Shown: positions 8,365 through 41,915 of the stretch, piece after piece
Layout of the letters: the number at the start of each line of letters is the position of its first letter
Position numbering within the stretch: position 1 is the first letter of the stretch
From: an uncultured Oscillospiraceae bacterium
GTDB taxonomy: Bacteria; Bacillota; Clostridia; Oscillospirales; Oscillospiraceae
Direction of reading: 5' to 3'
Assembly: GCA_944385795.1 (NCBI GenBank)
Contig: CALWYP010000038.1
Location: 5,774 to 69,773, forward strand
DNA: 64,000 nucleotides
Notes under the pieces: generated by a model
Told to the model about the DNA's origin: nothing
The model's input: only the letters and a program-made list of their open reading frames with translations
Databases searched by the model: none
Translations under genes and position numbers: made by a program

Positions 8365-8796
8365 AGCAAAAAACCGCGGCCCGGGCAAGCGTGCCGCCGG
8401 GGCGCGGGGTATGTTCACGGCGGTTTGCCATGCCGGCGGCCTTTGGGTAAAATGACGGCAATACCCGCAAGGCATATGCATAAAACTTTGTTCGCGGAAT
8501 TAATATTATACAGCTTTAACGCGGGCGCGGGCCGCCGCGCCGGGGGAGCCAGGCCCGAATTTTCCGGGCGGCATGTGTGGGCGTGAAGCGGGACAGAAAA
8601 AACTTTTTCCGGCAGATTTCGCCTCATTTCCCTTTTCTTCGCCGCTTTTGTACATTTTAACGGATGAATTAGTTTTACATAACTGAACAGAAGCAACGTT
8701 ATGGGATTATTTAAGGCGTACATATTCCAGCAGAAAGAAATAATGGAATTAAAAAGCAATTCTTCTTCGTCAATACAATGAAATTTGTTTACCATG

Positions 8797-17629: not shown

Positions 17630-18214
17630 TTACTTTTTGGGGTAGTGTATCACCATCACGGCGCGAGTTAGGGCGTCGGAGGCGCTGCGGTATGTATGCG
17701 GCTGATCCCCGCGGTAGTGTATGGCCGAGCCTCGAGGAACCGTATAGCGTTCGCGCCCCGCGCTCCCGAGGGTTATCTCTAGCGCGCCCTGATACACAAG
17801 CACGAACTCCTCCGTGCCATCGGCGTGGGCGCTGCTGTCCGAAACCGAGCCGGGGTCGAGCTCAAGATCGAGCATCTCAAAGTCCCGCCCGGGCCGAACC
17901 TTAAATATGGGATAGAGCCTGAAATGCCCCCTGTCGTTGAGCAGCGGGGTCATATCTGCCTCATTTACTATAGTGATGCCCTGCTCGCTGCGCTCCATGA
18001 GCGATGTAAAGGACACGTTGAGCCCGGTTGCGATTTTCCAGAGCGTTGAAATGGTTGGGCTGGATTCCCCGCGCTCTATCTGCCCGAGCATGCTTTTGCT
18101 TACCCCGGTGCGCTCGGAAACCTCGCCAAGGCTCAGCTGCGCCTGCGCGCGCAGGGCGCGAAGGTTTTCGGCAATAACGCGGTTCATATCCGTGGCTTCT
18201 TCTATATTGGGCAT
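17630..18214 (-). CDS. XRE-family HTH transcriptional regulator with a C-terminal cupin sensor domain
   Basis: HTH segment LSLGEVSERTGVSKSMLGQIERGESSPTISTLWKIA, followed by a cupin-like beta region (EEFVLVYQGALEI ... IHYRGDQPHTY). RBS GGAGGG lies 9 nt upstream. Confidence 0.8.
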   Translation of the reverse strand: MPNIEEATDMNRVIAENLRALRAQAQLSLGEVSERTGVSKSMLGQIERGESSPTISTLWKIATGLNVSFTSLMERSEQGITIVNEADMTPLLNDRGHFRLYPIFKVRPGRDFEMLDLELDPGSVSDSSAHADGTEEFVLVYQGALEITLGSAGRERYTVPRGSAIHYRGDQPHTYRSASDALTRAVMVIHYPKK

Positions 18215-18327
18215 GCGATGACTCCCTCCTCGACGTACGCTATAGCGTCTGATACATTTATACCACCCGCCGCTGGAAAGTACAACAAAATTTTTTGCTC
18301 ATGCGCTAAAAATGTGCCTGTCATCTG

Positions 18328-18384
18328 TTGACAATGAAAATGAAATGTGTTATCTTTAACGCACAGATGAGTGCGTTATAACGC
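18328..18384 (+). promoter_or_regulatory. Promoter with an overlapping operator-like repeat upstream of the glycyl radical enzyme gene
   Basis: TTGACA (18328..18333), a 17-nt spacer, then TATCTT (18351..18356). Immediately after comes the perfect inverted repeat TAACGCAC-AGATGA-GTGCGTTA (18357..18378) and a third half-site TAACGCA (18378..18384). Confidence 0.5.
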
Positions 18385-18431
18385 ATTACAAGCGCAGGAT
18401 TACATTCAGCTTTAAAGAAAGGATGACAGGC

Positions 18432-20801
18432 ATGATCACTGAGCGTATCGAGAAGATCCGTCAGAACTATGTTAACGCGAAGCCGCAGATATCCTATGAG
18501 CGCGCGCTTATATGGACCGAGTCCTATAAGAGCACCGAGGGCAAGCCGGCTTGTATACGCGCCGCCAAGGCCTTCTATGACTGCTGCGACCGCCTGGGAG
18601 TGCACATTTTCGAGGGCGAGCTGGTTGTCGGCGCAATCGGCGAATTCCGCAAATGCGGCATACTTACGCCTGAGTTCTCCTGGATGTGGGTTGACCGCGA
18701 GATGGACAATTTTGCGACCAGGCCGCAGGATCCGTACGTCATGACGGATGAGCAGCGTGCCTTCGTCCGCGAAAACATTTTCCCCTACTGGAAGGGCAAG
18801 AGCCTTGAGGAGGCCTTCCTCGCCCGCCTGCCCGAGGATACGCGGCGCGTCGGAGTCGACACCGGCGTCATAGACAGCGACTCCAAGTGGAGGCAGGCCG
18901 TGGGCGAAATAACGCCTGACTACCAGGACGTCCTCTTCAAGAAGGGCTTCGGCGGGATTATGCGCGAGGCCGAGGAGCACATCGCCGCCCTCGACATTTC
19001 CAAGCCCGAGGACGAGGATAAGCGCGACTTCTACGAATCCGTGATCTGGGCCTGCCGCGGTATCATCCGTATTGCCGGGCGCTATGCCGACGAGGCCGAG
19101 CGCCTGGCCTCCGAAGAGGCCGACGCTGTGCGCGCCGGCGAGCTGCGCACCATAGCCGCGGTCTGCCGCGCCGTGCCGGCCAACCCGCCGCGCAGCTTCC
19201 GCGAAGCCATCCAGTTCGTGTGGTTCACCCAGCTCGGCGGCATACTGTCCGAGAACCCGCTCGCGCTTAACCCCGGCCGCTTTGACCAGTATATGGACCC
19301 CTACTACGAGGCGGACCTTGCCGCCGGCAGCATCACCGCCGACGAGGCCCAGGAGCTTATCGACGCCCTCTGGCTCAAGTACTCCGAATGGGTCTGGACC
19401 ATTTCCGCCAACACCGCCGACTATTTCGCGGGCTACAACCAGTTCCAGAACCTGACCGTCGGCGGCAAGACGCGCGACGGCAAGGACGGAACCAACGCCG
19501 TCACCTATATGGCCCTCAAGGCGACCGAGGAGGTCAAAACTCATCAGCCGGGCCTTTCCGTGCGCGTCCACGCCGACTGCCCGAGGGATTTCCTCGACGC
19601 CGTTACTCATCTTGTCAGCAAGGGCACCGGCTTCCCGGCCATCCACAGCGACAGCGTCGGCTACCAGATGCTGCTCAACCTCGGATATTCCCCCGACGAC
19701 GCCCGCGACTGGAGCAACTGCGGCTGCGTGGTGCCCCACTCGCGCAAGACCGGCGAGTGGACCAGCGCCGCCAATCTCAATTTCGGCTCCGCGCTGGAGT
19801 ACGCCCTCAACGAGGGCCGCTCGCTCATGACCGGCGAGCTGATGGGCCTTGAGACGCCTCCCGCCGCCGAATACGCCGGCTTTGAGGCCGTCAAGCAGGC
19901 TTTCTACAGCCAGTTTGACAACCTCTGCCGCCACGCGGTCATCTCCCTCGTGACCGCCCAGAGGGTCCACCGCGAGATGGTCCCCCGCCCCTTCCTCTCC
20001 GCCTGCAACGAGCACTGCATGGAGAGCGGCACCGACCTGAGCCACGGCGGCGCCAAGTATAACATCGGGCCCGTCATCACCGGCATCGGCCTGGCTGTTG
20101 TCGCCAATTCCCTCGCCGCCATAAAGAAGCTGGTCTTCGAGGACAAGGCTTGCAGCATGGCGGAGCTCGTCGCCGCCCTGCGCGCCAACTGGGAGGGCTA
20201 TGACGAGCTGCGCGCTCTGGCGCAGGCCTGCCCGAAGTACGGCAACGACGACGACTACGTCGACTCCATAGCGCAGGAGGTCTCCAACCACTATTACCAT
20301 GAGGTGCACCAGTACAAGGACATCTTTGGCAACCCCTTCACCACCGCCTTCATGGGTATCTCCAACTACATCCCCATGGGCCGCGTGCTCGGCGCCACTC
20401 CCGACGGGCGCAAGAACGGCGAGCCCTCCAGCGAGGGCGTGAGCCCCTTCGTCGGCACGGATAAGTCCACCCCGCTCGCCGCCATGCGCTCCACCGCCAA
20501 GATGAACCAGGAAATCCACTCCGGCGGCACGCTGCTGAATCTCAGGCTTAACCCAGAGCTCGTGGCCACCAAGCGCGGCCAATCCAACCTCGGCGCGATG
20601 ATTCAGACGCTCTTCTCCCTCGGCGGCTTCCATGTGCAGTTCAACTGCATTTCCTCCGACATACTGCGCGACGCGCAGAAGCACCCCGAGAACTATCGGG
20701 ACCTCCTCGTGCGCGTGGCCGGCTATTCGACCCAGTTCGTAAACCTGTCCAGGTCCATGCAGGACGCCATCATCGCGCGTACCGAGCACAGCGGCTTCTG
20801 A
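18432..20801 (+). CDS. Glycyl radical enzyme of the PFL2 (dehydratase/lyase) type, substrate unknown
   Basis: C-terminal glycyl radical motif RVAGYSTQF (Gly codon 20721..20723). Cys loop WSNCGCVVPH (Cys 19725..19727). Size (~790 aa) and N-terminus are typical of PFL2-type GREs. The second ATG (18432) has better RBS spacing than 18423. Confidence 0.85.
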   Translation: MITERIEKIRQNYVNAKPQISYERALIWTESYKSTEGKPACIRAAKAFYDCCDRLGVHIFEGELVVGAIGEFRKCGILTPEFSWMWVDREMDNFATRPQDPYVMTDEQRAFVRENIFPYWKGKSLEEAFLARLPEDTRRVGVDTGVIDSDSKWRQAVGEITPDYQDVLFKKGFGGIMREAEEHIAALDISKPEDEDKRDFYESVIWACRGIIRIAGRYADEAERLASEEADAVRAGELRTIAAVCRAVPANPPRSFREAIQFVWFTQLGGILSENPLALNPGRFDQYMDPYYEADLAAGSITADEAQELIDALWLKYSEWVWTISANTADYFAGYNQFQNLTVGGKTRDGKDGTNAVTYMALKATEEVKTHQPGLSVRVHADCPRDFLDAVTHLVSKGTGFPAIHSDSVGYQMLLNLGYSPDDARDWSNCGCVVPHSRKTGEWTSAANLNFGSALEYALNEGRSLMTGELMGLETPPAAEYAGFEAVKQAFYSQFDNLCRHAVISLVTAQRVHREMVPRPFLSACNEHCMESGTDLSHGGAKYNIGPVITGIGLAVVANSLAAIKKLVFEDKACSMAELVAALRANWEGYDELRALAQACPKYGNDDDYVDSIAQEVSNHYYHEVHQYKDIFGNPFTTAFMGISNYIPMGRVLGATPDGRKNGEPSSEGVSPFVGTDKSTPLAAMRSTAKMNQEIHSGGTLLNLRLNPELVATKRGQSNLGAMIQTLFSLGGFHVQFNCISSDILRDAQKHPENYRDLLVRVAGYSTQFVNLSRSMQDAIIARTEHSGF

Positions 20802-20868
20802 TAAACTAAAACGCGGGCGGCCGCAGGCTTTTGCGGCCGCCTTTAATTAAAATTTGGAGGAAAGAGCT

Positions 20869-21609
20869 ATGGGCGGATATATTATGCAGCTTCAGGACTT
20901 TTCGGTCAACGACGGCGAGGGCATACGCACGATCGTCTTTATGGCCGGCTGCCCCCTGCGCTGCGCGTGGTGCTCCAACCCCGAAGGCCAGACCCTGCGC
21001 AATCCCATGACACGATGGGCAGAGGCCGGGGAGATAATCGGACACATAAGGCACCAGGAGATATTTTACCGCAGTTCCGGCGGCGGGGTGACATTCTCCG
21101 GCGGCGAAGCCACGGCCCAGCCGGACTTCCTCGCGGAGCTTGTGAACGAGCTCTACGACGAGGGCTTCAACCTCGCCATTGAGACCTGCGGCTTTTTCGA
21201 CTTTGAAAGGATCAGGCCCTTGCTGATGAAGATGGAGCGTATCTTCATGGACCTCAAGTGCCTGGACGCCGGACGCCACCGCGCCTTCACCGGCGCGGAT
21301 AACGGCCTTATACTCGAGAACCTGTCCAGGACAGCCGCGCTCGGCGTGCCTATGACCATACGGATCCCCACCATCCTCGGAGTTAACGCCGCGGACGACG
21401 ACATGGCTGCGGCCTTCGACTTCATTGCCGGCTCCTGCCGCGGCGCCAGCCTCGAGCTGCTGCCTTATCACAGGTACGGCGAGGCAAAATACGCCCAGCT
21501 CGGCCTCGAAGCCCCCGGCAGCGAGTTCGGCACCCCGGCTCCCGAGCAGATCGAGCGCTGGCTTGGCATGGCCCGTGAACGGGGGATTGAGACCGTGTCC
21601 TTCAAATGA
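20869..21609 (+). CDS. Glycyl-radical-enzyme activating enzyme (radical SAM), short PflA-like form
   Basis: CX3CX2C motif GCPLRCAWCSNPE and GGE motif TFSGGEAT. There are no additional ferredoxin-type Cys clusters. ATG 20869 follows GGAGG by 8 nt. The track start 20854 is a TTG. Confidence 0.85.
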   Translation: MGGYIMQLQDFSVNDGEGIRTIVFMAGCPLRCAWCSNPEGQTLRNPMTRWAEAGEIIGHIRHQEIFYRSSGGGVTFSGGEATAQPDFLAELVNELYDEGFNLAIETCGFFDFERIRPLLMKMERIFMDLKCLDAGRHRAFTGADNGLILENLSRTAALGVPMTIRIPTILGVNAADDDMAAAFDFIAGSCRGASLELLPYHRYGEAKYAQLGLEAPGSEFGTPAPEQIERWLGMARERGIETVSFK

Positions 21610-22964
21610 ATATGGATACCAGCAACACGAGGAGTGGCTTTATGCGGATGGCCGTCGTCCTGCCTAAGACGCAGGTGGAAATTTATTACCAGAGGTTTAC
21701 CGCCGTATTTGAAAATGAATTCAGTGAAATAGAAGTTGAATACATATTTTACAAGGATTATAAGGAGGCCCCGGGCCTGATAAAAGACAGGCAGCGGGAC
21801 TTTGACGCGATTATTTTCGCGGGGTCGGCGTCGTATTTCTACACCGAGAGCCAGCTCAAGCAGGAGACAATCTGGCTGTATCTCCCGCGCGAGGGCAGCG
21901 CCATCTATCGCGCGCTGCTGCTCGCCTACCGGCGGGGCTGGGACATAACCAGGCTGAGCTTTGACACCTATGAGCCTGACATGCTCAGGGAGGCTTATGA
22001 GGAGCTGGGTTACGACGCGGCGAGCTTAAATATACACCTGTGCAAGGGAAACCTGCGCAGCCCCGATTATAACCGCTTCGTGCTGGACTTCCACCAGGGC
22101 CTGCTGTCCAGCGGCCGCGTCAGCGGCTGCATAACGCGGCTGACCACCGTGGCCAATATGATGGAGACTCAGGGGATACCCTATATCTTCGCGCATCCCA
22201 CCATCGACACCGTGCGCGAGCAGGTTTCCTTCGCCCAGAAGCTGGCCGTGGCAAGGCGCGACTGCTGGGGGCAAATTGCCGTGCTGCTGGTGAACGTAGC
22301 TATGCCCCTCGACTACTCCGTGCTTGTCTCGGCGGACTACTCCATTGAAATGGACCGCCTGCGCATGGCGAACCATGTACACCGTTTTGCAAACCTTATC
22401 CGCGGCATGGCGATGGAACAGGGCACGAGCGCGTACGTCATAGTGTCCACGATGGACCTGCTTGAGGCGCAGACAGAGGTTTACAGGAGCCTGCCGCTTA
22501 TAGACTGGCTGGAAAAGGAGTGCCCCTACACCATTTCCGTAGGGATAGGCTGCGGCGAGTCGGTGTACGAAGCGCACCGCATGGCGGCGCTGGCCCTGCG
22601 CAAGTGCACGCAGAGGAAAAGGAGCTCCGCTTATGTCCAATTCCCGGACGGCACGGGGCTCTTCATACGCCGCGGCGGATCGGTCACCGCGGAACGCAGC
22701 GCCATGGACGAATGGCAGGAAACCGCGGTCGCCAGCGGTCTGAGCGTCAGTACAATCTACCGTCTTGCGGAACTAATAAACAGAAAACAGACCGATACCA
22801 TGACCGCGCAGGAGATAGCCGACGGCCTGCACATCAACCGCCGCAGCGCCGACCGCCTGATAGAAAAGCTGGAGTCGGCCGGCCGGGCGTCCGTCACCGG
22901 ACGCGAGCTCTCCGGGAAGAAGGGCCGGCCGGCGCGTATAGTCCAACTGTTCCTAAAGCTCTGA
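21606..22964 (+). CDS. Putative transcriptional regulator of unknown family (large N-terminal sensor-like region, C-terminal HTH)
   Basis: The start overlaps the activase stop (ATGA). The C-terminal HTH-like segments are LSVSTIYRLAELI and MTAQEIADGLHINRRSADRLIEKLE. I recognise no enzymatic motif. Confidence 0.5.
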   Translation: MNMDTSNTRSGFMRMAVVLPKTQVEIYYQRFTAVFENEFSEIEVEYIFYKDYKEAPGLIKDRQRDFDAIIFAGSASYFYTESQLKQETIWLYLPREGSAIYRALLLAYRRGWDITRLSFDTYEPDMLREAYEELGYDAASLNIHLCKGNLRSPDYNRFVLDFHQGLLSSGRVSGCITRLTTVANMMETQGIPYIFAHPTIDTVREQVSFAQKLAVARRDCWGQIAVLLVNVAMPLDYSVLVSADYSIEMDRLRMANHVHRFANLIRGMAMEQGTSAYVIVSTMDLLEAQTEVYRSLPLIDWLEKECPYTISVGIGCGESVYEAHRMAALALRKCTQRKRSSAYVQFPDGTGLFIRRGGSVTAERSAMDEWQETAVASGLSVSTIYRLAELINRKQTDTMTAQEIADGLHINRRSADRLIEKLESAGRASVTGRELSGKKGRPARIVQLFLKL

Positions 22965-22976
22965 ATACCTTCCAAC

Positions 22977-23013
22977 AAATCCCGCCGGGGCACACGCGCC
23001 GGCGGGATTTTTT
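22977..23013 (+). terminator. Rho-independent terminator ending the GRE-activase-regulator unit
   Basis: AAATCCCGCCGG ... CCGGCGGGATTT hairpin followed by additional T residues. Confidence 0.75.
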
Positions 23014-23199
23014 CGTCGTATTAAACAAGAACCATGTGGATGAATTGACAAAATTCCCAAATAATTTTTGGACTAATTATGGGCCTATTTCGGCATCGGC
23101 CCGTGCGTTATTTTGTTCTCAAAGAAGAGCGCCGTTTGCACAAAGCCGGCTGCGTTCTCAGGCGGGCGATAGTGCGCCAAGCTCAAAGGGGGAGCCAAA

Positions 23200-23907
23200 A
23201 TGTCACAAGATCAGTTCCAGACTGTAATAAACAGCCCGTGGATGTGGCTGGCCTGCGGCGTAATGGTGCTTATAGTCATAGCGCAGTCGGTCGTATATCT
23301 AAGAGGGGCGCTGAGGGAAGCGGACCGCCTTGGCATAGAAGCCAAAAGGCGGCATGGCGCAATACGCTCCGCCTGCATAAGCGCGGTGGGCCCGTCGCTT
23401 TCCCCGGTCATAATCGCGCTGAGCATGATTACGATAATCGGCGCGCCGAACACCTGGCTGTATCTCAACAACGTTGGCGCGGCCCGCACGGAGCTCGCAA
23501 CGGTGGCCATAGGGGCGGAATTTGCCGGCGTGTTTGAGCTTGGCGACAACATCGGCATGAGCGCGCTCAGCTGCGCCATGTGGGCCTGCGCGCTAAACGG
23601 CGTGGGCTGGATGATAGTGGTATTCTTCCTCAACCACCGTATGCAGCGGATTTCCGACGCGCTGTACGCAAAATTCGACCGGGCGCTAGTGAGCGCGCTC
23701 ATGGGCGCGGCGGTTACCAGCCTCTTCTGTTATCTGCTGGGCAACCAGCTCGTAAGCGGGAACTGGAGGCACTATCTTGCGGCGGCGATATCCGGCGGCT
23801 GTATGCTGCTGCTTGGATACATATGCAAAGGGCACGGCGTGCTGCAGGAAATTTCACTTGGCGTCTCAATGCTGGCAGGTATGCTGCTCACGCAGCTTGT
23901 GGCGTAA
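23200..23907 (+). CDS. Integral membrane protein, paralog A of a tandem pair (possibly DUF5058-like; family assignment uncertain)
   Basis: 235 aa, multi-TM. Clearly homologous to the next gene (shared blocks INSP..W, LRG.L.EA..LGI.A.RR...IRSACI...GPSL.PV, GAARTEL, FFL.HRM, AAAISG). RBS GGGGGAG. Confidence 0.6.
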   Translation: MSQDQFQTVINSPWMWLACGVMVLIVIAQSVVYLRGALREADRLGIEAKRRHGAIRSACISAVGPSLSPVIIALSMITIIGAPNTWLYLNNVGAARTELATVAIGAEFAGVFELGDNIGMSALSCAMWACALNGVGWMIVVFFLNHRMQRISDALYAKFDRALVSALMGAAVTSLFCYLLGNQLVSGNWRHYLAAAISGGCMLLLGYICKGHGVLQEISLGVSMLAGMLLTQLVA

Positions 23908-23942
23908 GCCAATATTAAGCCTGAAAAAGAGGAGGAGAAAAA

Positions 23943-24644
23943 ATGGACTTCCAAGAAATCATCAACAGTCCGATATTGTGGGTCCTGTCAGGCCTTATGG
24001 TAGTGGCCAGCGTGGTGCAGGCAATAGTGTTCCTGCGCGGGTCGCTCAAAGAGGCCAACAAGCTCGGAATCGACGCGTCGCGCCGCAAGGCGAGCATACG
24101 AAGCGCGTGCATAACCTCGCTGGGCCCCTCCCTGGCGCCGGTAGTCAGCGTGCTCGCGCTCATGGCCGTTATCGGCGGGCCGACCACCTGGATGCGCCTG
24201 TGCGACGTCGGCGCCGCGCGTACCGAGCTCGGCGTCGTCTCGCTCATGGCTAACCTCACGGGGGCCGAGGTCGGCGGCGAGAGCTTCGGCATCCAGAGCT
24301 TCGCCTACTCGCTCTGGGGCATGGCGCTCAACAACTTCGGCTGGCTGGCCATAGTGTTCTTCCTCGTCCACCGCATGGACAAGGTCGTCGTCTGGATGGA
24401 CAAGAAGTACGACCCCAAGTGGATAAAGGTTCTTATGGGCGCGGCCACCATGAGCATGTTCGCCTACCTGCTGAGCAATCAGCTCTACAAGTTTAACTGG
24501 AACAACTGGGCCGCGGCGGCCATCAGCGGCGCTTCAATGCTGATCATAGGCTCCGCGTTCAAAAAGCACCAGAGGCTGCAGGAGCTGGCACTCGGCCTCT
24601 CGCTAATCATCGGTATGCTGGCCACCCAGGCCATATTTGGCTGA
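23943..24644 (+). CDS. Integral membrane protein, paralog B of the tandem pair
   Basis: 233 aa, collinear with 23200..23907 over its full length. RBS GAGGAGGAG. Confidence 0.6.
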   Translation: MDFQEIINSPILWVLSGLMVVASVVQAIVFLRGSLKEANKLGIDASRRKASIRSACITSLGPSLAPVVSVLALMAVIGGPTTWMRLCDVGAARTELGVVSLMANLTGAEVGGESFGIQSFAYSLWGMALNNFGWLAIVFFLVHRMDKVVVWMDKKYDPKWIKVLMGAATMSMFAYLLSNQLYKFNWNNWAAAAISGASMLIIGSAFKKHQRLQELALGLSLIIGMLATQAIFG

Positions 24645-24668
24645 ACGCCCGGATAAGGAGGCAGTAAA

Positions 24669-25331
24669 ATGTCATACAATTCTTCCGTCATCCGCAACGG
24701 CCGCATAACCATGGGCCTTGCGATTATAGCGAACTTCATCCCCGCCATCTATGTCGGCTTCGCCTACGACGTTATGCCGCCCATCGGCGTGCTGTTCCAG
24801 ATTTGGGGCGTCGTCGCGGCGAGCTACGGCATCACCTGGATAATCCAGCCCATAGCCTATTATCCCACGATGGGCACCGCCGGCTCCTATATCGGCTGGC
24901 TGGCCGGCAGCTGCGGCGACATACGCATGCCCGCCGCCGCAATGGCCCAGAAGGTGGCCCGCGTTGAGGCCGGCACGCACGAGGGCGACGTTATAGGCAC
25001 TATCGGCGTGGCCTGCTCCGTGCTCGTATCCGCATCTATGGTCACCCTCTTCGTACTTATCGGCACCCAGGTCATCCCCCTGCTGCCCGAGTTCATCACC
25101 GAGTCCTTCAGCTACATACTGCCCGCGCTCTTCGGCGCCATCTTTGTCGACAACGCCCGCAAGAACCTCAAGGCCGGTATACTCACCCTGGTCTGCGGCA
25201 TGCTTATCCTCCACTTCGGCACCATGATAGGCATCAACAGCGGAATCCTGACCCTGCTCATCGTCGTGCTGGGCATACTCATCACCCGCGTCTTCTTCGT
25301 CGCCGACAAGAAAAAGGCCGCCAAGGAATAA
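24669..25331 (+). CDS. Integral membrane protein of unknown function (third component of the putative transporter)
   Basis: 220 aa, hydrophobic, with a conserved-looking loop GSCGDIRMPAAAMAQKV. RBS AAGGAGG. Only a 24-nt gap separates it from the previous gene. Confidence 0.55.
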   Translation: MSYNSSVIRNGRITMGLAIIANFIPAIYVGFAYDVMPPIGVLFQIWGVVAASYGITWIIQPIAYYPTMGTAGSYIGWLAGSCGDIRMPAAAMAQKVARVEAGTHEGDVIGTIGVACSVLVSASMVTLFVLIGTQVIPLLPEFITESFSYILPALFGAIFVDNARKNLKAGILTLVCGMLILHFGTMIGINSGILTLLIVVLGILITRVFFVADKKKAAKE

Positions 25332-25346
25332 GGAGGACATGGATAT

Positions 25347-26528
25347 ATGGAAGCTATACTCAAAAAACAGCTGGAAGACTACATAGATTCCCACCGCCAG
25401 GAAATGCTCGACCTCTGGCGCGACGTAGTCAACCTCGAGGGAAACAGCGACGATCTGGCCGGCCTGCGGCTGGTCGTCGACAGGTTCAAGGCCGAATTTG
25501 AGGCCGCCGGAATGACCTGCCAGCTCCTACCCATGGGCGATAAGACCCAGGATTACCTTGTTGGCACGCTTGGCAGCGACAGGCCCGGCAAGGCCGTGCT
25601 CTTCAGCGGGCACTACGACACTATTCTCCCGCGCGGCAAATACGGGCCCTCCCCCTTCAGGATCGAAAATGGCCACGCCCGCGGCCCGGGCGTGCTGGAC
25701 ATGAAGGGCGGCATAGTGATAGCCCTCTACGTCATCCGCGCCCTTAACGCCATTGGCTGGGCCGAGCGTCCGCTCAAGATATGCTTTGTCTCCGACGAGG
25801 AGAGCTGCCACGAGCACAACGACAAGGCCGGGGAAACCCTCATGCGCGAGGCGGAGGGCTGCCTTTGCGCCTTCAACATGGAGACCGGCCGCATAAACAA
25901 CGACATCTGCATCGGCCGCAGCGCGCGCGTAGGCTTTGACGTCGCTATCGACGGCGTCGCCGCACACGCCGGCAACGACTTCGCCTCCGGCCGCAGCGCC
26001 ATCGCCGAAATGTGCCGCAAGGTGCTCGAGCTTGAGGCCCTTACCAACCTCGAAAAGGGCAGCACGGTAAACTGCGGCGTCATCCGCGGCGGCACGGTGG
26101 CCAACGCTATCCCCGGCCACTGCGAACTGAACGTGGACATGCGCTTCCTCAGCCAGGCCGAGCTCACCAAGACCGTCGAGGCCGCGAAAGCCATCTGCGA
26201 GAAAACCTGGATAGACGGCACGCACACCACCTATTCTTACCGCGTGGCCATGCCCGCCTTCGAAACCATCCCCGGCGTCATGGAACTGTACGAGCTCACC
26301 CGCAGCGCCAGCGAAGCCTACGGTTACGGCAGCCCCGGCAAGATAGTGCTCGGCGGCGTGTCCGACGCCAGCTACCTCACCATGGCCGGCGTTCCCACGC
26401 TCTGCTCCTGCGGCGTGCGCGGCGAAAATAACCACACCGACGAAGAGTACGGCCTTGTGGAATCCCTCTACGAGCGCGCCAAGCTGCTCACCGCCGTCGT
26501 GCTCCATCTTGACGAGTTCAAGTATTGA
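25347..26528 (+). CDS. M20-family metallopeptidase / amidohydrolase (carboxypeptidase G2-like)
   Basis: M20 signatures: LFSGHYDT, GPGVLDMKGG, VSDEE and a C-terminal GG.SDAS block. Confidence 0.8.
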   Translation: MEAILKKQLEDYIDSHRQEMLDLWRDVVNLEGNSDDLAGLRLVVDRFKAEFEAAGMTCQLLPMGDKTQDYLVGTLGSDRPGKAVLFSGHYDTILPRGKYGPSPFRIENGHARGPGVLDMKGGIVIALYVIRALNAIGWAERPLKICFVSDEESCHEHNDKAGETLMREAEGCLCAFNMETGRINNDICIGRSARVGFDVAIDGVAAHAGNDFASGRSAIAEMCRKVLELEALTNLEKGSTVNCGVIRGGTVANAIPGHCELNVDMRFLSQAELTKTVEAAKAICEKTWIDGTHTTYSYRVAMPAFETIPGVMELYELTRSASEAYGYGSPGKIVLGGVSDASYLTMAGVPTLCSCGVRGENNHTDEEYGLVESLYERAKLLTAVVLHLDEFKY

Positions 26529-26545
26529 TTATTAAGGAGAAATCA

Positions 26546-26917
26546 ATGAAAGTAACCCACACCACCCACGCGCCGGCGGCCATAGGGCCATATTCGCAGG
26601 CCGTTTCCGCCAACGGTTTTCTCTTCACCTCCGGCCAGATCGGCCTTATCCCCGAAAGCGGCAAGCCCGCCGGGACGACCGTTGCAATCCAGGCCGACCA
26701 GTGCTGCCAGAACATAAAGGCTATACTCGAGGCCAACGGCCTCGACTTCAACAGGGTAGTAAAAACGACCTGTTTCCTCGCCGATATAGCCGATTTCGCG
26801 GCCTTTAACGAGGTGTACGCGAGGTACTTCACCGGCAAGCCCGCGCGCAGCTGCTTTGCCGTGAAGGATTTGCCCGGCAGCATGCTCTGCGAGATAGAAG
26901 TCATAGCCGCGCTGTAA
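26546..26917 (+). CDS. ridA: RidA/YjgF-family reactive enamine/imine deaminase
   Basis: AIGPYSQA, FTSGQIG and CFLADIADFAAFNEVY blocks. ATG 26546 follows AAGGAG. The track start 26525 overlaps the previous gene without an RBS. Confidence 0.85.
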   Translation: MKVTHTTHAPAAIGPYSQAVSANGFLFTSGQIGLIPESGKPAGTTVAIQADQCCQNIKAILEANGLDFNRVVKTTCFLADIADFAAFNEVYARYFTGKPARSCFAVKDLPGSMLCEIEVIAAL

Positions 26918-26931
26918 ACTGGGGGAGCGAT

Positions 26932-27510
26932 ATGGATAATATTGTAGAAATCCGCTGGCACGGCCGCGGCGGGCAGGGCGCGAAAACCGCCGCCCTGCTG
27001 CTCGCCGACGCCGCCTTCAACACCGGCAAGTATGTCCAGGGCTTCCCTGAGTACGGCCCCGAGCGCATGGGCGCGCCCATAACGGCGTATAACCGTATAA
27101 GCTCCGAGCGCAGCACCGTACACTCGAACATCTACTGCCCGGACTACGTCGTCGTCGTCGACGAGACGCTCATCAGCTCCGTAGACGTGACCGCCGGCCT
27201 CAAGCCTGAGGGCGCGATAGTCATAAACTCCGGCAAAGCGCCCGAAGAGCTGCGCCCAATGCTCAAGGGCTATACCGGCAAGGTCTGCACGATCGACGCC
27301 GGCAGGATCTCCGAGGAGGAACTTGGCAGGAACTTCCCCAACACGCCCATGCTCGCCGCCATAGTCAATGTGACCGGGATTATAGACGAGGACGAGTTCG
27401 TGAAGGATATGGAGGGCTCGTTCAGGCACAAGTTTGCAAGCAAGCCCCAGGTCATAGAGGGCAACATGCGCGCGCTCAAGCGCGCGCTCAAGGAGGTGCG
27501 CATAGGATGA
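26932..27510 (+). CDS. 2-oxoacid:ferredoxin oxidoreductase, gamma subunit
   Basis: IRWHGRGGQGAKTAALLLA motif typical of PorG/VorG. First of four tightly spaced or overlapping genes. Confidence 0.85.
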   Translation: MDNIVEIRWHGRGGQGAKTAALLLADAAFNTGKYVQGFPEYGPERMGAPITAYNRISSERSTVHSNIYCPDYVVVVDETLISSVDVTAGLKPEGAIVINSGKAPEELRPMLKGYTGKVCTIDAGRISEEELGRNFPNTPMLAAIVNVTGIIDEDEFVKDMEGSFRHKFASKPQVIEGNMRALKRALKEVRIG

Positions 27511-27815
27511 GCCATCTGGCCAAAGACATGACCGATAAGGTCACATGGAAGGAAATAACCCCGGGCTGCAACATTTACGAGGGAGGCACCTCCGCCGTCG
27601 TAGAGACCGGCGACTGGCGCACCATGCGCCCCGTAATAGACTGGGACAAGTGCAAGCAGTGCCTGCTGTGCGTTCCGGTGTGCCCGGATATGTCCATACC
27701 GGTTGATGGCGACGGGAAGCGCGGGGATTTTAACCTCTTCTTCTGCAAGGGCTGCGGCATCTGCGCGAACGCCTGCCCGTTCGGCGCTATCAGCATGGTC
27801 AAAGAGCAAAAGTGA
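27507..27815 (+). CDS. 2-oxoacid:ferredoxin oxidoreductase, delta (2x[4Fe-4S] ferredoxin) subunit
   Basis: CKQCLLCVPVCP and CKGCGICANACP motifs. The start overlaps the gamma subunit stop (ATGA). Confidence 0.85.
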   Translation: MSHLAKDMTDKVTWKEITPGCNIYEGGTSAVVETGDWRTMRPVIDWDKCKQCLLCVPVCPDMSIPVDGDGKRGDFNLFFCKGCGICANACPFGAISMVKEQK

Positions 27816-27827
27816 GGGGGTGGAGAA

Positions 27828-29006
27828 ATGAGCATTCGTGAGAGACTTTCCGGCAACGAGGCAGTTGCCTACGCAATGAAGCAGATAAACCCCGACGTCA
27901 TGGGCGCGTACCCCATAACGCCGAGCACGGAGATACCTCAGTATTTCTCCGCCTATGTGGATAACGGCGAAGTGGACACCGAGTTCATCGCCGTCGAGAG
28001 CGAGCACAGCGCCATGTCCACCTGCATCGGCGCCGAGGCCGCCGGCTGCCGCGCCATAAGCGCCACCAGCTCCTGCGGGCTTTGCTACATGACCGAGATG
28101 CTGTACGTCGCGGCGAGCGACCGCCTGCCCATCACCCTCGCGGTGAGCTGCCGCGCGCTCAGCGGCCCCATCAACATCAACAACGACCACTCCGACGCCA
28201 TGGGCGTGCGCGACACCGGCTGGCTCATGCTCTTTGCCGAGACCAACCAGGAGGCCTACGACAACTACCTCCAGGCCATGCGCATAGCGGAGGCCGTGAG
28301 CCTGCCCATAATGATCTGCCAGGACGGCTTTATCACCTCCCACGCCATCGAGAACATCGAGCTCGTCGAGACGGACAAGGTCAGGGCCTTCGTCGGCGAG
28401 TACAAGCCCGCCCACTACCTGCTCAACAAGGACGAGCCCATGGCCGTCGGCGCTTACGCCACCCCGGTGTACTACATGGAGGCCAAGCGCCAGCAGGCCC
28501 AGGCCATGATGGACGCCAAGGACGTCATCCGCAAGGTCGGCGCCGAGTTCGCCGAGATGACCGGGCGCAGCTACGGCCTCATAGAGAAATACATGATGGA
28601 CGACGCAGAAATCGCCATCGTCATCATGGGCTCCTCCGCCGGCACCGCCAAGGAGGCCATAAAGCAGCTTCGTGCCAGGGGAGTGAAGGCCGGCCTCGTC
28701 AAGGTCAGATCCTTCCGTCCCTTCCCGAGCGAGGACATAGCCGAGGCGCTCTCCGGCGTCAAGGCCTTCGCCGTCATGGACAAGGACGACAGCTTCAACG
28801 CCCACTGCGGCCCCATGTACGCGGAGGTTACCTCGTCGCTCTACGCCGCCGGCGTCAGCGGCCCGAAGGGCGTCAGCTACATATACGGCCTCGGCGGCCG
28901 CGACGTGCGCGTCGAGAGCATTGAGCGCGTTTTCAACGAGCTGGAGGATATCGCCGCGACGGGCAATGCGGGCGAGACCTACCGCTACCTCGAAGTGCGC
29001 GAATAA
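27828..29006 (+). CDS. 2-oxoacid:ferredoxin oxidoreductase, alpha subunit
   Basis: 392 aa. N-terminus GNEAVAYAMKQINPDVMGAYPITPSTEI is typical of PorA/VorA. Confidence 0.85.
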   Translation: MSIRERLSGNEAVAYAMKQINPDVMGAYPITPSTEIPQYFSAYVDNGEVDTEFIAVESEHSAMSTCIGAEAAGCRAISATSSCGLCYMTEMLYVAASDRLPITLAVSCRALSGPININNDHSDAMGVRDTGWLMLFAETNQEAYDNYLQAMRIAEAVSLPIMICQDGFITSHAIENIELVETDKVRAFVGEYKPAHYLLNKDEPMAVGAYATPVYYMEAKRQQAQAMMDAKDVIRKVGAEFAEMTGRSYGLIEKYMMDDAEIAIVIMGSSAGTAKEAIKQLRARGVKAGLVKVRSFRPFPSEDIAEALSGVKAFAVMDKDDSFNAHCGPMYAEVTSSLYAAGVSGPKGVSYIYGLGGRDVRVESIERVFNELEDIAATGNAGETYRYLEVRE

Positions 29007-29020
29007 GGAGGCCGAGAACT

Positions 29021-29953
29021 ATGGCTTACAATCTGAAAGAGAACGTTATGCGCGAAGACCGCCTCTCCGGCGGGCACAGGATGTGCGCCGGCTGCGGCTC
29101 GCCCATCGCCGTGCGCACCGTGCTGCGAGCCCTCGACCCCGGCGACAAGGCCGTAGTCTGCTCGGCCACGAGCTGCCTCGAGGTTTCCACCTTCATGTAC
29201 CCCTACACCGCGTGGAAGGACAGCTTCATCCACAACGCCTTTGAGAACGCGGGCGCGACCATGTCCGGCGTCGAGACCGCTTACCGCGCGATGAAAAAGC
29301 GCGGCAAGATAGACGAGACATGGAAGTTCATCGCCTTCGGCGGCGACGGCGGCACCTACGACATCGGTTTCCAGAGCCTCTCAGGCGCAATGGAGCGCGG
29401 CCACGACATGGTCTACGTCTGCTACGATAACGAGGCGTACATGAACACCGGCATACAGCGCTCTTCCTCCACGCCGCATTTCGCCGATACAACCACGACC
29501 CCCGTCGGCAAGGTGATCCCCGGCAAAATGCAGCAGAAGAAGAACCTCACGAAGATAATGGTCGCCCACAACATCCCCTACGTCGCTCAGACGACCTTCA
29601 TAGGTAACTTCAAGGACATCTCGGAAAAGGCGCACAAAGCCATCTACACCCCGGGCGCGGCGTTCCTGAACGTCATGGCCCCCTGCCCTCGCGGCTGGCG
29701 ATACGCCACCGAGAAGCTCATGGAGATAACCAAGCTCGCCGTCGAGACCTGCGTCTGGCCGCTCTACGAGGTTGTTGGGGGTAAATACGTCCTCAATTAC
29801 GAGCCCAAGAACAAGCTGCCCGTCGAGGCCTACCTCAAGCCGCAGGGCCGCTTCGCGCATATGTTCAAGCCCGGAAACGAGTGGATGATTGAGGAAATGC
29901 AGAAGGAAGTCGACCGCAACTGGGAAGAGCTCCTCAGGCTGTGCAGCATGTAA
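29021..29953 (+). CDS. 2-oxoacid:ferredoxin oxidoreductase, beta (TPP-binding) subunit
   Basis: CAGCG near the N-terminus and the TPP motif GGDGGTYDIG...YDNEAYMNTG. Confidence 0.85.
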   Translation: MAYNLKENVMREDRLSGGHRMCAGCGSPIAVRTVLRALDPGDKAVVCSATSCLEVSTFMYPYTAWKDSFIHNAFENAGATMSGVETAYRAMKKRGKIDETWKFIAFGGDGGTYDIGFQSLSGAMERGHDMVYVCYDNEAYMNTGIQRSSSTPHFADTTTTPVGKVIPGKMQQKKNLTKIMVAHNIPYVAQTTFIGNFKDISEKAHKAIYTPGAAFLNVMAPCPRGWRYATEKLMEITKLAVETCVWPLYEVVGGKYVLNYEPKNKLPVEAYLKPQGRFAHMFKPGNEWMIEEMQKEVDRNWEELLRLCSM

Positions 29954-30064
29954 GCTCAAAGCCGCGCTTATCCGCCCTGCCGGCAAACAACAGGCAGCCT
30001 GAAGCGGCTTAGAAGAGCTAAACAAAACCATATAATATTGAAGTTGAAATTATTCAATCAGCCG

Positions 30065-30105
30065 AAAGGGCTTGCCGCCTGTCATTCACAGGCGGCAAGC
30101 CCTTT
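30065..30105. terminator. Bidirectional terminator between the oxidoreductase operon and the convergent GH2 gene
   Basis: AAAGGGCTTGCCGCCTGT-CATTC-ACAGGCGGCAAGCCCTTT perfect hairpin. Confidence 0.8.
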
Positions 30106-30176
30106 GGCTTTGCCCTGACTATGCGGATATTGCGGCGAAGTCAGCTCGCAGCGCCGGGTGGCGCCGCGGGCGCGCG

Positions 30177-31889
30177 TTATTTCACTTCCGGCATTTTTAT
30201 AATCCGCTTCACGTCGCCGGGGGCGAGCTTTATTACGCGGCGGTCGTAGGTTATAAGGCCGTTGAGCTCGGTTTCGACGTCCGTGAGCTGGGTGTAGACG
30301 GCGGCGGCGAGGCCCTTCATGCACGCGGGGCGGATCTGCCCGTCGTAGAGCAGGGTGAGGGCGCGGCGGAACTTGTCCTGGCTCTGGAATTTCTTATAGC
30401 CGAAGGGCTTGTCCGTGACGCTGTGCCCGGCTATGGGCAGGGCGTAGCCGCCGAACTCGCTGAGCGCGACGCAGCGGCCGGCCTTGTCGGGCCTGTATTT
30501 ATAGTCGTCAAAATAGAGGTGTATGCTCCTGAGCTCGCCCGTGCCCTGGTCGTGCCAGCCGCTGGCCCTGTCTATGATCCGCGTGGGGTCGATTTCCGCC
30601 ACGGCCCCGGCCAGGGCGTCGGAATCGAACTGCCCCCAGCCCTCGTTGAAGAGCACCCACATGACTATGCAGGGGGAGTTGTAGAGGCAGGAGACCATGT
30701 CGAGCAGCTCCTCGCGGAACTCGTCCCGGCCGGCCCCGTCGCGCCGCGCGAACTTGGCGTAATTGCCGTCCCGGCTGTGCGCGCCGGTGAGCAGGGGGGC
30801 GCTTACGGTGAGGGCGGAGTAGTTCCCGCCGCCGTTGGGCATGTCCTGCCAGACCAGCATGCCCAGCCTGTCGCAGTGGTAGTACCAGCGGGCGCTCTCC
30901 ACCTTGACGTGCTTGCGCAGGGTGTTGAAGCCCATGGCCTTTGCCGCGGCGATGTCGAAGGCCAGGGCCTCGTCGCTGGGCGCGGTGTACAGCCCGTCGG
31001 GCCACCAGCCTTGGTCCAGCAGCCCGTTCATGAAATAGGGCTTGCCGTTGAGCAGCAGGCGCTTAACCCCGGAGCGGTCCTCGCCCACGCCCACGCTGCG
31101 CAGGGCGAAGTAGCTCTCCACCCGGTCGGCGCCGAGCGCGAGCTCCAGCTTGTACAGGTAGGGGTCCTCGGGCGTCCAGGGATGCGCTTCCTCGAGCTTC
31201 AGCACGGCCGCCTCCCCGGCGCTGAAGTCGTAGGCCGCGCCGCCGTTTATCACCGCGCGCACACGGCCCTCGCCGCCGCAGGTGAGCTCCACGGAGCCGT
31301 CTTCAAGGCGCGGCGTTATGAACAGCGAATCAATGTAATTCTCCGGCACGCTCTCAAGCCATACGGTCTGCCATATGCCGCTCACGGGCCCGTACCATAT
31401 CCCGCCGGGCTTGAGCTTCTGCTTGCCCCGGGTGTGGTAGGTCCTGTCCGTCCCGTCCGTCACGCGCACCACGAGCTCGTTCACGCCCTCGCCCAGCAGC
31501 TCCGTCACGTCCGCGGAGAAGGGGAGATAGCCGCCCGTGTGTACGCAGACGTCCTCGCCGTTGAGCCAGACGCGCGCGCACTGGTCCACCGCGCCGAAAT
31601 GCAGCAGCACCCGGCCTATGTTGAAGCCCTCGGGCAGTTCAAAGCCGCGCCTGTACCAGAGGTATTCTCCGGGCAGCAGCGCCCGGCCCACGCCCGAAAG
31701 GGCGCTCTCAGGCGGGAAGGGCACGCAGATCTCGCCGCCGTATTCCGCCGGGGCGGAATTCGACGCGGTAAAGGCGCAGTCCCACAGCCCGTTGAGGCTC
31801 ATCCAGCGCTCGCGCCGGAGCTGGGGGCGTGGATATTCGGGCAGCGGGTTCTCGCGCTCAAGCGCTTCGCCCCATTTGGTCAGCAGCAT
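30177..31889 (-). CDS. Glycoside hydrolase family 2 enzyme (beta-galactosidase/glucuronidase-like, short form)
   Basis: N-terminus ENPLPEYPRPQLRRERWMSLNGLW and acid/base region PCIVMWVLFNEGWGQ. RBS AAGGAGG. Confidence 0.75.
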   Translation of the reverse strand: MLLTKWGEALERENPLPEYPRPQLRRERWMSLNGLWDCAFTASNSAPAEYGGEICVPFPPESALSGVGRALLPGEYLWYRRGFELPEGFNIGRVLLHFGAVDQCARVWLNGEDVCVHTGGYLPFSADVTELLGEGVNELVVRVTDGTDRTYHTRGKQKLKPGGIWYGPVSGIWQTVWLESVPENYIDSLFITPRLEDGSVELTCGGEGRVRAVINGGAAYDFSAGEAAVLKLEEAHPWTPEDPYLYKLELALGADRVESYFALRSVGVGEDRSGVKRLLLNGKPYFMNGLLDQGWWPDGLYTAPSDEALAFDIAAAKAMGFNTLRKHVKVESARWYYHCDRLGMLVWQDMPNGGGNYSALTVSAPLLTGAHSRDGNYAKFARRDGAGRDEFREELLDMVSCLYNSPCIVMWVLFNEGWGQFDSDALAGAVAEIDPTRIIDRASGWHDQGTGELRSIHLYFDDYKYRPDKAGRCVALSEFGGYALPIAGHSVTDKPFGYKKFQSQDKFRRALTLLYDGQIRPACMKGLAAAVYTQLTDVETELNGLITYDRRVIKLAPGDVKRIIKMPEVK

Positions 31890-32077
31890 ACCGGCGCCTC
31901 CTTAACTTCAGTCTTCTATATATTCTACACTAACTTCGCCCTCTTGCAAAGACGGAAATGCCGCCTCGTCACTATGCACAATGCGATAGTTAATTAACAA
32001 GCAGCTTTCGACGCGAAAACTGTAAAATTGTTAACACAATGACAGATAAATAGCATAGATTAACATTTATTATGCAC

Positions 32078-38945: not shown

Positions 38946-38982
38946 AAAAGCCTCCGTATGCGCGCATACGGAGGCTCTTTTT
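38946..38982. terminator. Bidirectional terminator between coaX and the convergent FMN enzyme gene
   Basis: Perfect palindrome GCCTCCGTATGCG/CGCATACGGAGGC flanked by an A-run and a T-run. Confidence 0.8.
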
Positions 38983-38999
38983 CTTTCTGCCAGCGCCGC

Positions 39000-40037: not shown

Positions 40038-40122
40038 AGCAACCTCCCGCCGTTTGCGCGGCTTTTCGTAAAATATAGTCTGATTTTACTACATTAATCC
40101 ACAGGTGGCAAGGGTTTTCAGA

Positions 40123-40163
40123 GAAAAAAGTGAAGCGCCGAGGCGGGAGGGCCCGCCTCGGCG
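40123..40163 (-). terminator. Rho-independent terminator after the vWA gene
   Basis: Minus strand GCGCCGAGGCGGG-CCCT-CCCGCCTCGGCGC followed by TTCACTTTTTT. Confidence 0.75.
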
Positions 40164-40192
40164 TTGGGTATATACGCGCTGCCCGGGCGCGC

Positions 40193-41914: not shown

Positions 41915-41915
41915 A

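Follow-up and report, generated by a model that had tools for sequence, protein, structure and literature searches.

We analyzed a 64,000-nucleotide (nt) stretch of DNA from an uncultured Oscillospiraceae bacterium (contig CALWYP010000038.1), hereafter the window, in which positions 17630–30105 encode a glycyl radical enzyme (GRE) with its activase, a set of membrane proteins with an M20 amidohydrolase, RidA, and a four-subunit 2-oxoacid:ferredoxin oxidoreductase (OFOR). We consider it somewhat probable, at about 0.55, that this region is a composite of three modules and not one dedicated pathway. An earlier note on the same DNA had proposed a single uncharacterized pathway, a reading that, from the sequence comparisons given below, is only partly right.

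Module A (17630–21609) would be a self-contained unit, spread across amino-acid-fermenting Clostridia and composed of an XRE-cupin repressor, a palindromic operator just 3' of the promoter, the GRE, and the activase. Module B (21606–26528) would be a portable cassette for amide uptake and hydrolysis with its own regulator and leader element: two DUF5058 proteins and a third membrane protein would import the amide, and the cytoplasmic M20 enzyme would split this N-acyl-amino-acid or peptide-like compound, delivering the amino acid or its acyl partner. Module C (26525–29953), made up of RidA and OFOR, would convert a 2-imino or 2-oxo acid to an acyl-CoA and reduced ferredoxin, the latter usable by Rnf. 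The GRE would perform a radical conversion of an amino-acid-type compound, supplied in many lineages by an M20 aminoacylase. In the lineage of the window, module B probably supplies module A, and RidA with OFOR would represent a general amino-acid-to-acyl-CoA tail, inherited beside the GRE in this Oscillospiraceae lineage.

Gene organization and comparison sets

Gene identities were obtained from Pfam and NCBIfam profile searches and an open reading frame (ORF) listing. Conservation of neighbors was followed by tblastn with the window proteins and by all-against-all clustering of neighboring ORFs. The comparison set consists of 80 GRE loci from a scan of one genome per species, with GREs 63–100% identical to that of the window, and partner counts are given for 81 loci; W designates the window's own locus and L-numbers the comparison loci. 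The carriers are Clostridioides difficile, Anaerotignum propionicum, A. neopropionicum, A. lactatifermentans, Evtepia gabavorous, Fusibacter, Dethiosulfatibacter aminovorans, and many metagenome-assembled genomes of Oscillospiraceae, Peptococcaceae, and Lachnospiraceae. A second sample, taken from the DUF5058 side, comprises nine contexts (L085, L086, L087, L088, L090, L092, L094, L095, and L096).

All 13 genes that the earlier note had assigned to the region were found at the same coordinates. Its two transcription units, the tight spacing of the nine genes in the second unit (intergenic gaps of -4 to 35 nt), both terminators (z -5.0 and z -8.1), the divergent orientation of the XRE-cupin gene (17630–18214, -) relative to the GRE gene, and the Rnf genes downstream, with RnfC starting at 32200, were likewise confirmed. 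Both terminator hairpins fold far better than shuffled sequence. The features are as follows.

17630..18214 (-): regulator with XRE (HTH_3) and cupin domains (Pfam HTH_3, Cupin_2), divergent from the GRE gene
18328..18356 (+): sigma-70-like GRE promoter, TTGACA, 17 nt, TG-n-TATCTT (10/12 matches, extended -10)
18371..18386 (unstranded): 16-bp palindromic operator GTGCGTTATAACGCAT, 15 nt 3' of the GRE -10
18432..20801 (+): GRE, 789 aa (PFL-like PF02901, 734 bits; Gly_radical PF01228, 113 bits)
20854..21609 (+): radical-SAM GRE activase (Pfam/NCBIfam; TIGR02494, 232 bits versus a cut-off of 174)
21606..22964 (+): 452-aa probable regulator, with a weak HTH_11 match at the C terminus; it begins within the last 4 nt of the activase gene
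22977..23013 (+): intrinsic terminator of the GRE-activase-regulator transcript (hairpin 22977–23010, dG -28.3 kcal/mol, z -4.97, then a T-run)
23064..23095 (+): cassette leader element ATTTTTGGACTAATTATGGGCCTATTTCGGCA, kept in W, L035, L001, L009, and the GRE-less L092
23200..23907 (+): DUF5058 membrane protein a (PF16481, 162.6 bits versus a gathering cut-off of 28.2)
23943..24644 (+): DUF5058 membrane protein b (PF16481, 174.6 bits versus a gathering cut-off of 28.2)
24669..25331 (+): third membrane protein, 220 aa, about six predicted transmembrane segments, without a Pfam match
25347..26528 (+): M20 metallo-amidohydrolase, carboxypeptidase-G2-like (Pfam M20 and M20_dimer domains)
26525..26917 (+): RidA (TIGR00004, 153.6 bits versus a cut-off of 106.25); its start overlaps the M20 stop
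26932..29953 (+): four-subunit OFOR, PorG/D/A/B (gamma, delta, alpha, beta), of the pyruvate/2-ketoisovalerate family
30060..30109 (unstranded): strong bidirectional terminator (dG -42.8 kcal/mol, z -8.1)

The start of the GRE gene was placed at 18432 and not at 18423, as the product is then 100% identical to database protein P0001.

Regulation and neighborhood of the glycyl radical enzyme

The activase gene follows the GRE gene in 77 of the 80 loci, the other three ending or breaking just past the GRE, and an XRE-cupin homologue adjoins the GRE in 50/80. Apart from these two, no neighbor family exceeds nine loci. Many loci are stand-alone GRE-activase pairs (for example L081–84), sometimes accompanied by a LytTR two-component system.

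The -35 and extended -10 elements of the GRE promoter have counterparts in the aligned upstream sequences of L001, L004, and L021, and the operator downstream of them is the only such site in the window at ≤3 mismatches. The 12-mer RYGTTATAACRY occurs 26 times in the 1.5 Mb of window and loci, in all cases upstream of a GRE or an XRE-cupin-GRE operon, from C. difficile (GTATGTTATAACATAC) to Oscillospiraceae. Matches to at least 12 of the 16 operator positions are present in 25/75 GRE upstream regions versus 6/379 control windows. The XRE-cupin protein is the probable repressor of the GRE promoter.

The two dedicated regulators of the earlier note are borne out, each with its own conserved cis-element, the second being the cassette leader element described below. 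Unit 2 of the window contains no copy of the GRE operator at the same mismatch limit. The leader of unit 2 contains a perfect 9-nt left half-site of the operator (GTGCGTTAT, 23103–23111), present only in W and in the 94%-identical relative L035 and missing from L001, L009, and L092. Control of unit 2 by the XRE-cupin protein was rejected on these grounds, the unconserved half-site being probably due to chance.

The activases differ in length between branches. Those of the Oscillospiraceae/Anaerovoracaceae branch (window 20854–21609, L004:12514–13254, L020:12384–13124) have 246–251 aa and lack an insert of about 50 residues that contains two CxxCxxCxxxC motifs; the same-family activases of C. 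difficile, A. propionicum, and L036 have about 300 aa and carry it (L036, L071, and L060 compared), and that of L077 shows a partial deletion. It follows that the auxiliary clusters are dispensable for activation of this GRE.

Among the remaining neighbors, a fusion of an aldo-keto reductase with a 4Fe-4S ferredoxin domain recurs beside the GRE (L027, L028, L031, L049, L075, and L077). It lies directly upstream of the GRE in L027/28/31 and is also found near a GRE-less DUF5058 cassette (L090/L091). By our own reading of the cluster sequences, a Liv-type ABC transporter is located near the GRE in L018/L030. In C. difficile (L071/L072/L074, 3341–13853), a LytTR response regulator and histidine kinase, a ZIP transporter, an M20D enzyme, and a 422-aa membrane protein without a Pfam match precede the GRE-activase-XRE-cupin genes.

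The DUF5058 cassette

The nine DUF5058-side contexts share a common core (9/9) that consists of DUF5058 in one or two copies, a membrane protein of about 220 aa, and an amidohydrolase, which is an M20 enzyme in some and an Amidohydro_3 protein of about 545 aa in others. The ~220-aa protein follows DUF5058 in every cassette seen and is 30–79% identical to that of the window, in which the DUF5058 paralogues a and b are 47% identical to each other. A homologue of the 452-aa protein, 438–443 aa long and 27–49% identical, is present in 5/9 contexts (L085, L086, L090, L092, and L096) and was not found in L087, L088, L094, and L095. The cassette of L092/93 corresponds to the entire five-gene cassette of the window, without GRE, RidA, or OFOR; for the regulator, the third membrane protein, and M20, on which the comparison was made, identity is 49–79%, with 78% for the M20 of L092. 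The link that the earlier note drew between the two units thus holds in part: the GRE does occur with M20 and a putative importer in some lineages, but the DUF5058 cassette is an independent entity, devoid of GRE in 9/9 sampled contexts.

The earlier note had placed the second regulator in the GRE unit. The 452-aa gene does lie within that transcript, but functionally it is part of the membrane protein/M20 cassette, of which it is the probable regulator. Weak profile matches indicate an N-terminal sensor region, a GGDEF-like region, and a C-terminal winged helix-turn-helix (wHTH), and in the PDB the profile of its family weakly matches wHTH proteins and GTP cyclohydrolase III. The leader element is probably the promoter/operator on which this regulator acts. 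Because the element is kept at cassettes including the GRE-less L092 and the GRE operator is confined to GRE and XRE-cupin promoters, the two modules appear to be separately regulated. No riboswitch or other known RNA was detected by Rfam at gathering thresholds in the 186-nt leader of unit 2.

The M20 enzyme of the window carries no signal peptide. It reaches 185 bits with PRK06133 (subfamily cut-off 349), and its best PDB match is CPG2 with only 99 bits. Since a cytoplasmic enzyme requires an imported substrate, and this is the only argument for such a role, we propose DUF5058 and the third membrane protein as a putative importer. A literature search returned no publication on DUF5058.

In many DUF5058 cassettes the M20 enzyme, present in the window, is replaced by a YtcJ-like Amidohydro_3 protein (PF07969), a family that includes D-aminoacylases, UacY of the anaerobic urate pathway, and the metallo-bile-salt hydrolases of Bilophila. 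Characterized YtcJ-like members cleave N-acyl or conjugate amides (PMC12507026, PMC13081902).

A variant is seen in Acetonema longum (L087, 7727–13237) and in L094 (5191–12280), where an XRE-cupin gene is divergent from a cluster of the order (PALP)-RidA-DUF5058-membrane protein of about 227 aa-Amidohydro_3-D-Ser-dehydratase-like protein, and then by a chemoreceptor. The product of this cassette is evidently deaminated via an enamine or imine, and the deaminases that stand where the window has its GRE hint that the cassette delivers a beta-substituted, possibly D-, amino acid.

Association of the glycyl radical enzyme with M20 amidohydrolases

M20 enzymes were counted when located within 10 kb of the GRE (n = 81). 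An M20 enzyme is present in 17/81 loci, over GRE identities of 63–100%, and these enzymes belong to two subfamilies, go with four transporter types, and occur in several independent arrangements. In L001/4/5/7, an M20D aminoacylase (YxeP/ILR1-like) lies directly upstream on the same strand, in the order M20D-GRE-activase (tblastn, NCBIfam), and operator-like sites are located upstream of M20D. The order is GRE-activase-DUF5058-membrane protein-M20D in L036/37, and two Gate-domain membrane proteins, two M20 enzymes, and GRE-activase in L032. C. difficile and Fusibacter (L061) have an unclassified membrane protein of 397–422 aa together with an M20 enzyme within 5 kb of the GRE. Three arrangements place DUF5058 itself beside the GRE, one in W/L001/L035, one in L036/37, and one in L009, with cassette and GRE in divergent orientation.

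In D. aminovorans (L077, 2299–13152), a DcuC-type carrier, two OSBS/NSAR-family enzymes, an M20 enzyme, and a family III CoA-transferase precede the GRE-activase pair. The GRE gene begins before the CoA-transferase gene has ended, and a gene homologous to that of the 452-aa regulator runs in the divergent direction. In no other locus seen is the GRE coupled as tightly to further enzymes. The M20 partners of the GRE match the families of known systems, namely the routes that combine an N-succinyl/N-acyl amino acid racemase (NSAR) with M20, Bacillus subtilis YxeP, the plant ILR1-type M20D enzymes, and carboxypeptidase G2. L077 resembles the NSAR systems in its two OSBS/NSAR-family genes beside M20 and GRE, but the known NSAR/aminoacylase systems have no GRE, and the identities are moderate, under equivalog cut-offs.

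By a rough estimate, the GRE flanks hold one M20 gene per ~70 kb. Such genomes are generally expected to contain roughly one per several hundred kb, so that the enrichment near the GRE would be approximately five-fold. The link between GRE and amidohydrolase is likely to be functional, but facultative. The neighbors as a whole, with aminoacylases, NSAR-like genes, a CoA-transferase, amino-acid transporters, and Fe-S aldo-keto reductases, fit an amino-acid or carboxylate substrate.

The arrangements also bear on whether the GRE unit, the DUF5058 cassette, and RidA-OFOR might be functionally unrelated, brought side by side because amino-acid catabolic genes accumulate in variable regions. This would agree with the occurrence of cassette and GRE each alone in most genomes, with their separate regulators and cis-elements, and with the genes that flank the island (GH2, GH3, an SLH protein, a CBS-DHH phosphatase or pyrophosphatase, and a beta-eliminating lyase), which are unrelated to it. 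It does not readily explain independent same-strand runs of GRE and M20 with four transporter types at 63–84% GRE identity, nor a rare family such as DUF5058 adjoining the GRE in three arrangements, nor the operator-like sites upstream of M20D, and we regard such pure juxtaposition as improbable.

RidA and the oxidoreductase

The earlier note had arranged the genes into a linear chain, with membrane import, cleavage by M20, a GRE elimination giving an enamine or imine, its hydrolysis by RidA to a 2-oxoacid, and oxidation by OFOR to an acyl-CoA plus reduced ferredoxin. Such a pathway can invoke the adjacency of all its parts on one strand, the overlap of the M20 stop with the RidA start, and the recurrent linkage of GRE and M20. 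Its best argument is drawn from the RidA cassettes of L087 and L094, which hold pyridoxal phosphate (PLP) deaminases (D-Ser-dehydratase-like, PALP) in the slot of the GRE, with an XRE-cupin gene again divergent; in the window, the GRE is the sole in-cluster candidate for that step, an argument by analogy only.

The survey of the 81 loci, the check that the earlier note had put forward, gave a divided answer: the linkage of GRE to M20 recurs (17/81), but RidA is near the GRE in only 4/81 loci and OFOR (PorA) in 6/81. The OFOR of the window has all its subunits in one operon, with gamma (POR), delta (2x4Fe-4S), alpha (POR_N + PFOR_II), and beta (TPP_enzyme_C). It scores 214 bits with TIGR02175 (cut-off 81) and 93.5 with TIGR02179 (cut-off 60), and stays below the equivalog cut-offs of the pyruvate-specific models PorA_Arch (464 versus 550) and PorB (363 versus 405), the Vor models being only slightly lower.

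The sister loci L004/L007 are the most informative. Their order is M20D-GRE-activase, IlvA, an SDF-family transporter, RidA, and PorGDAB. Their GRE is 82–84% identical to that of the window, PorA 87–88%, and OFOR as a whole 84–88%. IlvA is a threonine ammonia-lyase (TIGR01127, 487 bits versus a cut-off of 379), and the downstream unit, as predicted from its genes, is a complete threonine/serine-to-acyl-CoA route. In the window, where profile searches found neither a PALP dehydratase nor an SDF/TdcC transporter within 17630–30105, the cassette occupies the slot of the L004 dehydratase and transporter, and the GRE...RidA-PorGDAB layout is kept. The best explanation for the adjacency of GRE and OFOR is thus that a variable region was inherited from a common ancestor. 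Little is added by L034, with GRE-activase, a gap, and PorGDAB, or by L020, with PorGDAB 7 kb away.

RidA-OFOR can therefore be accounted for without the GRE, which leaves a GRE-RidA-OFOR chain with weak support; of the proposed links, the comparison of loci favors only that between GRE and amidohydrolase. In addition, a strong terminator and distinct cis-elements separate the two units, and the GRE has no counterpart of the glutamate used by all known GRE eliminases (see below). We judge the linear pathway unlikely, although it is the best placed of the alternatives for the region as a whole.

Several observations weigh against the three-module reading itself. As many as 64/81 GRE loci have no M20 within 10 kb, and many are GRE-activase pairs alone, which implies that the coupling, if any, is facultative. 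The five-fold enrichment can only be approximate, given that amino-acid fermenters often carry M20 genes and that many of the loci come from related lineages. The importer role proposed for DUF5058 has no match to a solved structure or fold: the all-helical AF2 (AlphaFold2) model of DUF5058b (pLDDT 74.5) gave no Foldseek match against the PDB below E 0.2, and the DUF5058 sequence profile has no PDB relative. Finally, the M20/RidA start-stop overlap and the RidA-DUF5058 clusters (Acetonema, L094) could place RidA in the cassette's own pathway, in which case a deaminase encoded elsewhere could feed it.

A beta-eliminating lyase of the tryptophanase/tyrosine phenol-lyase family is encoded 2 kb upstream of the island (15109–16557, -). 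It makes aminoacrylate and pyruvate and is a possible source of RidA/OFOR substrates; tblastn showed no conservation of this gene beside the GRE in the 80 other loci.

Active site of the glycyl radical enzyme

The best solved and curated relatives of the GRE are choline trimethylamine-lyases, CutC, with ~600–700 bits and ~40% identity (PDB, NCBIfam). Like CutC/CutD, the window pair combines an end-to-end alignable GRE, with a glycyl radical domain and the catalytic Cys, and an adjacent radical-SAM activase. The glycyl site RVAGYS aligns with that of CutC, and Cys432 aligns with CutC Cys489, being invariant in 79/79 family sequences and in 137/137 of the nearest relatives. Loop invariance was judged on these 79 family sequences, which are 63–100% identical, and the 137 nearest full-length outside representatives (P0282–P0418) were taken from a scan of 1.84 billion representatives.

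The GRE nevertheless stays under every NCBIfam equivalog cut-off, including those of CutC (TIGR04394, 706.5 versus 1050), HypD (572 versus 1100), and the formate-lyase models (PFL TIGR01255, 155 versus 994; PRK09983, 516 versus 1109). Its family is isolated: members are at least about 55–63% identical, and the next full-length relatives reach at most 41%. It is also common, with more than 120 clusters at 90% identity that share >81% identity with the query, and core in C. difficile. Database names of its members are generic, and no publication characterizing the clade was found in a literature search.

The main difference from CutC is in the Cys loop. In the GRE it reads N-C430-G-C432-V-V434-P-H, so that the catalytic Glu is replaced by Val and a second Cys is present two residues upstream of the catalytic one. 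The loop D-W-[SN]-N-C-G-C-V-V-P-H-x-R-K is invariant in the family, and C-V-V takes the place of C-x-E (C-V-E in CutC) in 79/79 members. According to a June 2026 review, C-x-E is kept by all characterized GRE eliminases and isomerases, and two Cys on the Cys loop are found in PFL and TdcE only (PMC13450708). Among the 137 nearest representatives, C-x-E is retained in 104 and absent in 33, and a Cys at position i-2 is present in just one. The 33 clusters without the Glu (33–41% identity) carry T, S, Q, H, D, R, or A instead, so that a sizeable part of the "eliminase-like" GRE sequence space departs from the motif of the characterized members.

The substrate pocket is altered as well. With CutC numbering read off the printed alignment to the Desulfovibrio alaskensis enzyme, the replacements are Glu491 to Val, Asp216 to Glu, Tyr208 to Ser, Tyr506 to Asn, and Thr334 to Leu, the last four affecting the trimethylammonium pocket, while Phe389, Phe395, and Thr502 are retained. 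The first four of these replacements are invariant across the family. At the position of Asp216, the 137 nearest representatives have His in 102 cases and Glu in two. The pocket would contain one Glu at this position, which could hold an ammonium group, together with Ser, Thr, and Asn and a hydrophobic wall. Binding of a sulfonate such as taurine or isethionate in the manner of IslA was judged unlikely, as Arg678 and Val680 of IslA, mapped through the CutC alignment, correspond to Met and Ile.

By its residues, the GRE is a distinct, uncharacterized, CutC-like clade and not CutC. Orthology to CutC, despite the best PDB and NCBIfam matches, was rejected on score and on the replaced key residues. 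It is a vanishingly small possibility, and gene searches of the window showed no microcompartment or cut genes. A further difference from the CutC/CutD systems is that the activase of this lineage has no ferredoxin insert.

The closest known systems also include HypD, HpyG, and HpzG, GREs that act on free amino acids (trans-4-hydroxy-L-proline, N-methyl-hydroxyproline) in gut Clostridia including C. difficile. Their sequence distance is comparable (575 bits with 8ID1 and 483 bits with 6VXC), but they keep C-x-E, and most such relatives have His where the window GRE has Glu. HypD is linked to P5C reductase, none of which is seen at the window locus.

The missing loop Glu and the extra Cys argue against a hydroxyl-assisted elimination, and the radical elimination of the earlier note loses the residue on which known GRE eliminases depend. 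The reaction is most likely not a CutC-type, Glu-assisted 1,2-elimination. The possibilities include a new lyase or isomerase acting on an amino acid, a formate-lyase-like enzyme acting on a 2-oxoacid, and a two-cysteine hydrogen relay. Tentatively, and at well below even odds, the clade may catalyze an undescribed chemistry, either a C-C/C-N lyase reaction or a radical epimerization at an unactivated carbon, on an amino acid, or its acyl partner, that M20 aminoacylases free from N-acyl amino acids.

The second of these possibilities, a convergent 2-oxoacid formate-lyase analogous to TdcE/PFL, would use the loop cysteines for thiyl addition and an acyl-enzyme and share the 2-oxoacid of OFOR. 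It is attractive in that two invariant loop Cys without Glu are so far a feature of PFL/TdcE only among GREs other than ribonucleotide reductases, and in that the L004/7 loci, where IlvA, a transporter, RidA, and OFOR are grouped with the GRE-activase pair, parallel the Escherichia coli tdc operon (TdcB dehydratase, TdcC transporter, TdcE GRE, TdcF RidA), from which the window differs by having OFOR alongside. Neighbors that make or use 2-oxoacids are also present (the beta-eliminating lyase of the window, an aminotransferase in L061, and an acetolactate synthase in L034), and a formate-lyase product needs no dedicated downstream genes, which suits the many lone GRE-activase loci. However, the Cys residues are spaced C-G-C and are not the adjacent pair of PFL (C418-C419), the similarity is very low, with 155 bits against a PFL equivalog cut-off of 994, and the closest relatives belong to the eliminases. 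In the pocket there is a Glu and, as far as the CutC alignment allows (the positions of PFL Arg176/Arg435 being not mappable), no evident Arg pair for a carboxylate; nor does a formate channel or dehydrogenase recur among the neighbors at the 80 loci. We consider a formate-lyase quite improbable.

Other features of the window

An ORF at 18321–20789 (-) was rejected as a gene, being a high-GC artefact antisense to the GRE, as were the ORFs at 27270–28805 (-), 24672–25394 (-), and 30072–31997 (+), high-GC artefacts antisense to PorA, the third membrane protein, and GH2, respectively. Four large ORFs of 379–1010 aa (5449–8481, -; 38958–41965, +; 43006–45849, -; and 47185–49224, +) have no Pfam match at E ≤ 1e-5. 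The sole Rfam match in the 64-kb window at gathering thresholds is a single tRNA gene (46287–46360, +).

Implications

GREs perform consequential anaerobic reactions in the gut, which yield precursors or products such as trimethylamine, p-cresol, skatole, and hydrogen sulfide, and which underlie the use of hydroxyproline. The most interesting element of the region is the GRE clade, which is abundant, core in C. difficile, and departs from the motif of all characterized eliminases and isomerases, with a second loop Cys otherwise known only from formate-lyases. Its conserved repressor and operator offer a direct handle for finding the inducer of the GRE, and the recurrent aminoacylase link suggests that entry is by way of N-acylated or conjugated amino acids, which abound in the gut. 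The DUF5058 cassette is newly defined as a portable unit in which a regulator and an amidohydrolase accompany two or three membrane proteins. If the proposed roles are true, an undescribed chemistry would define a further mechanistic class of GREs, and DUF5058 with its partner would form a new family of importers for amides such as N-acyl amino acids.

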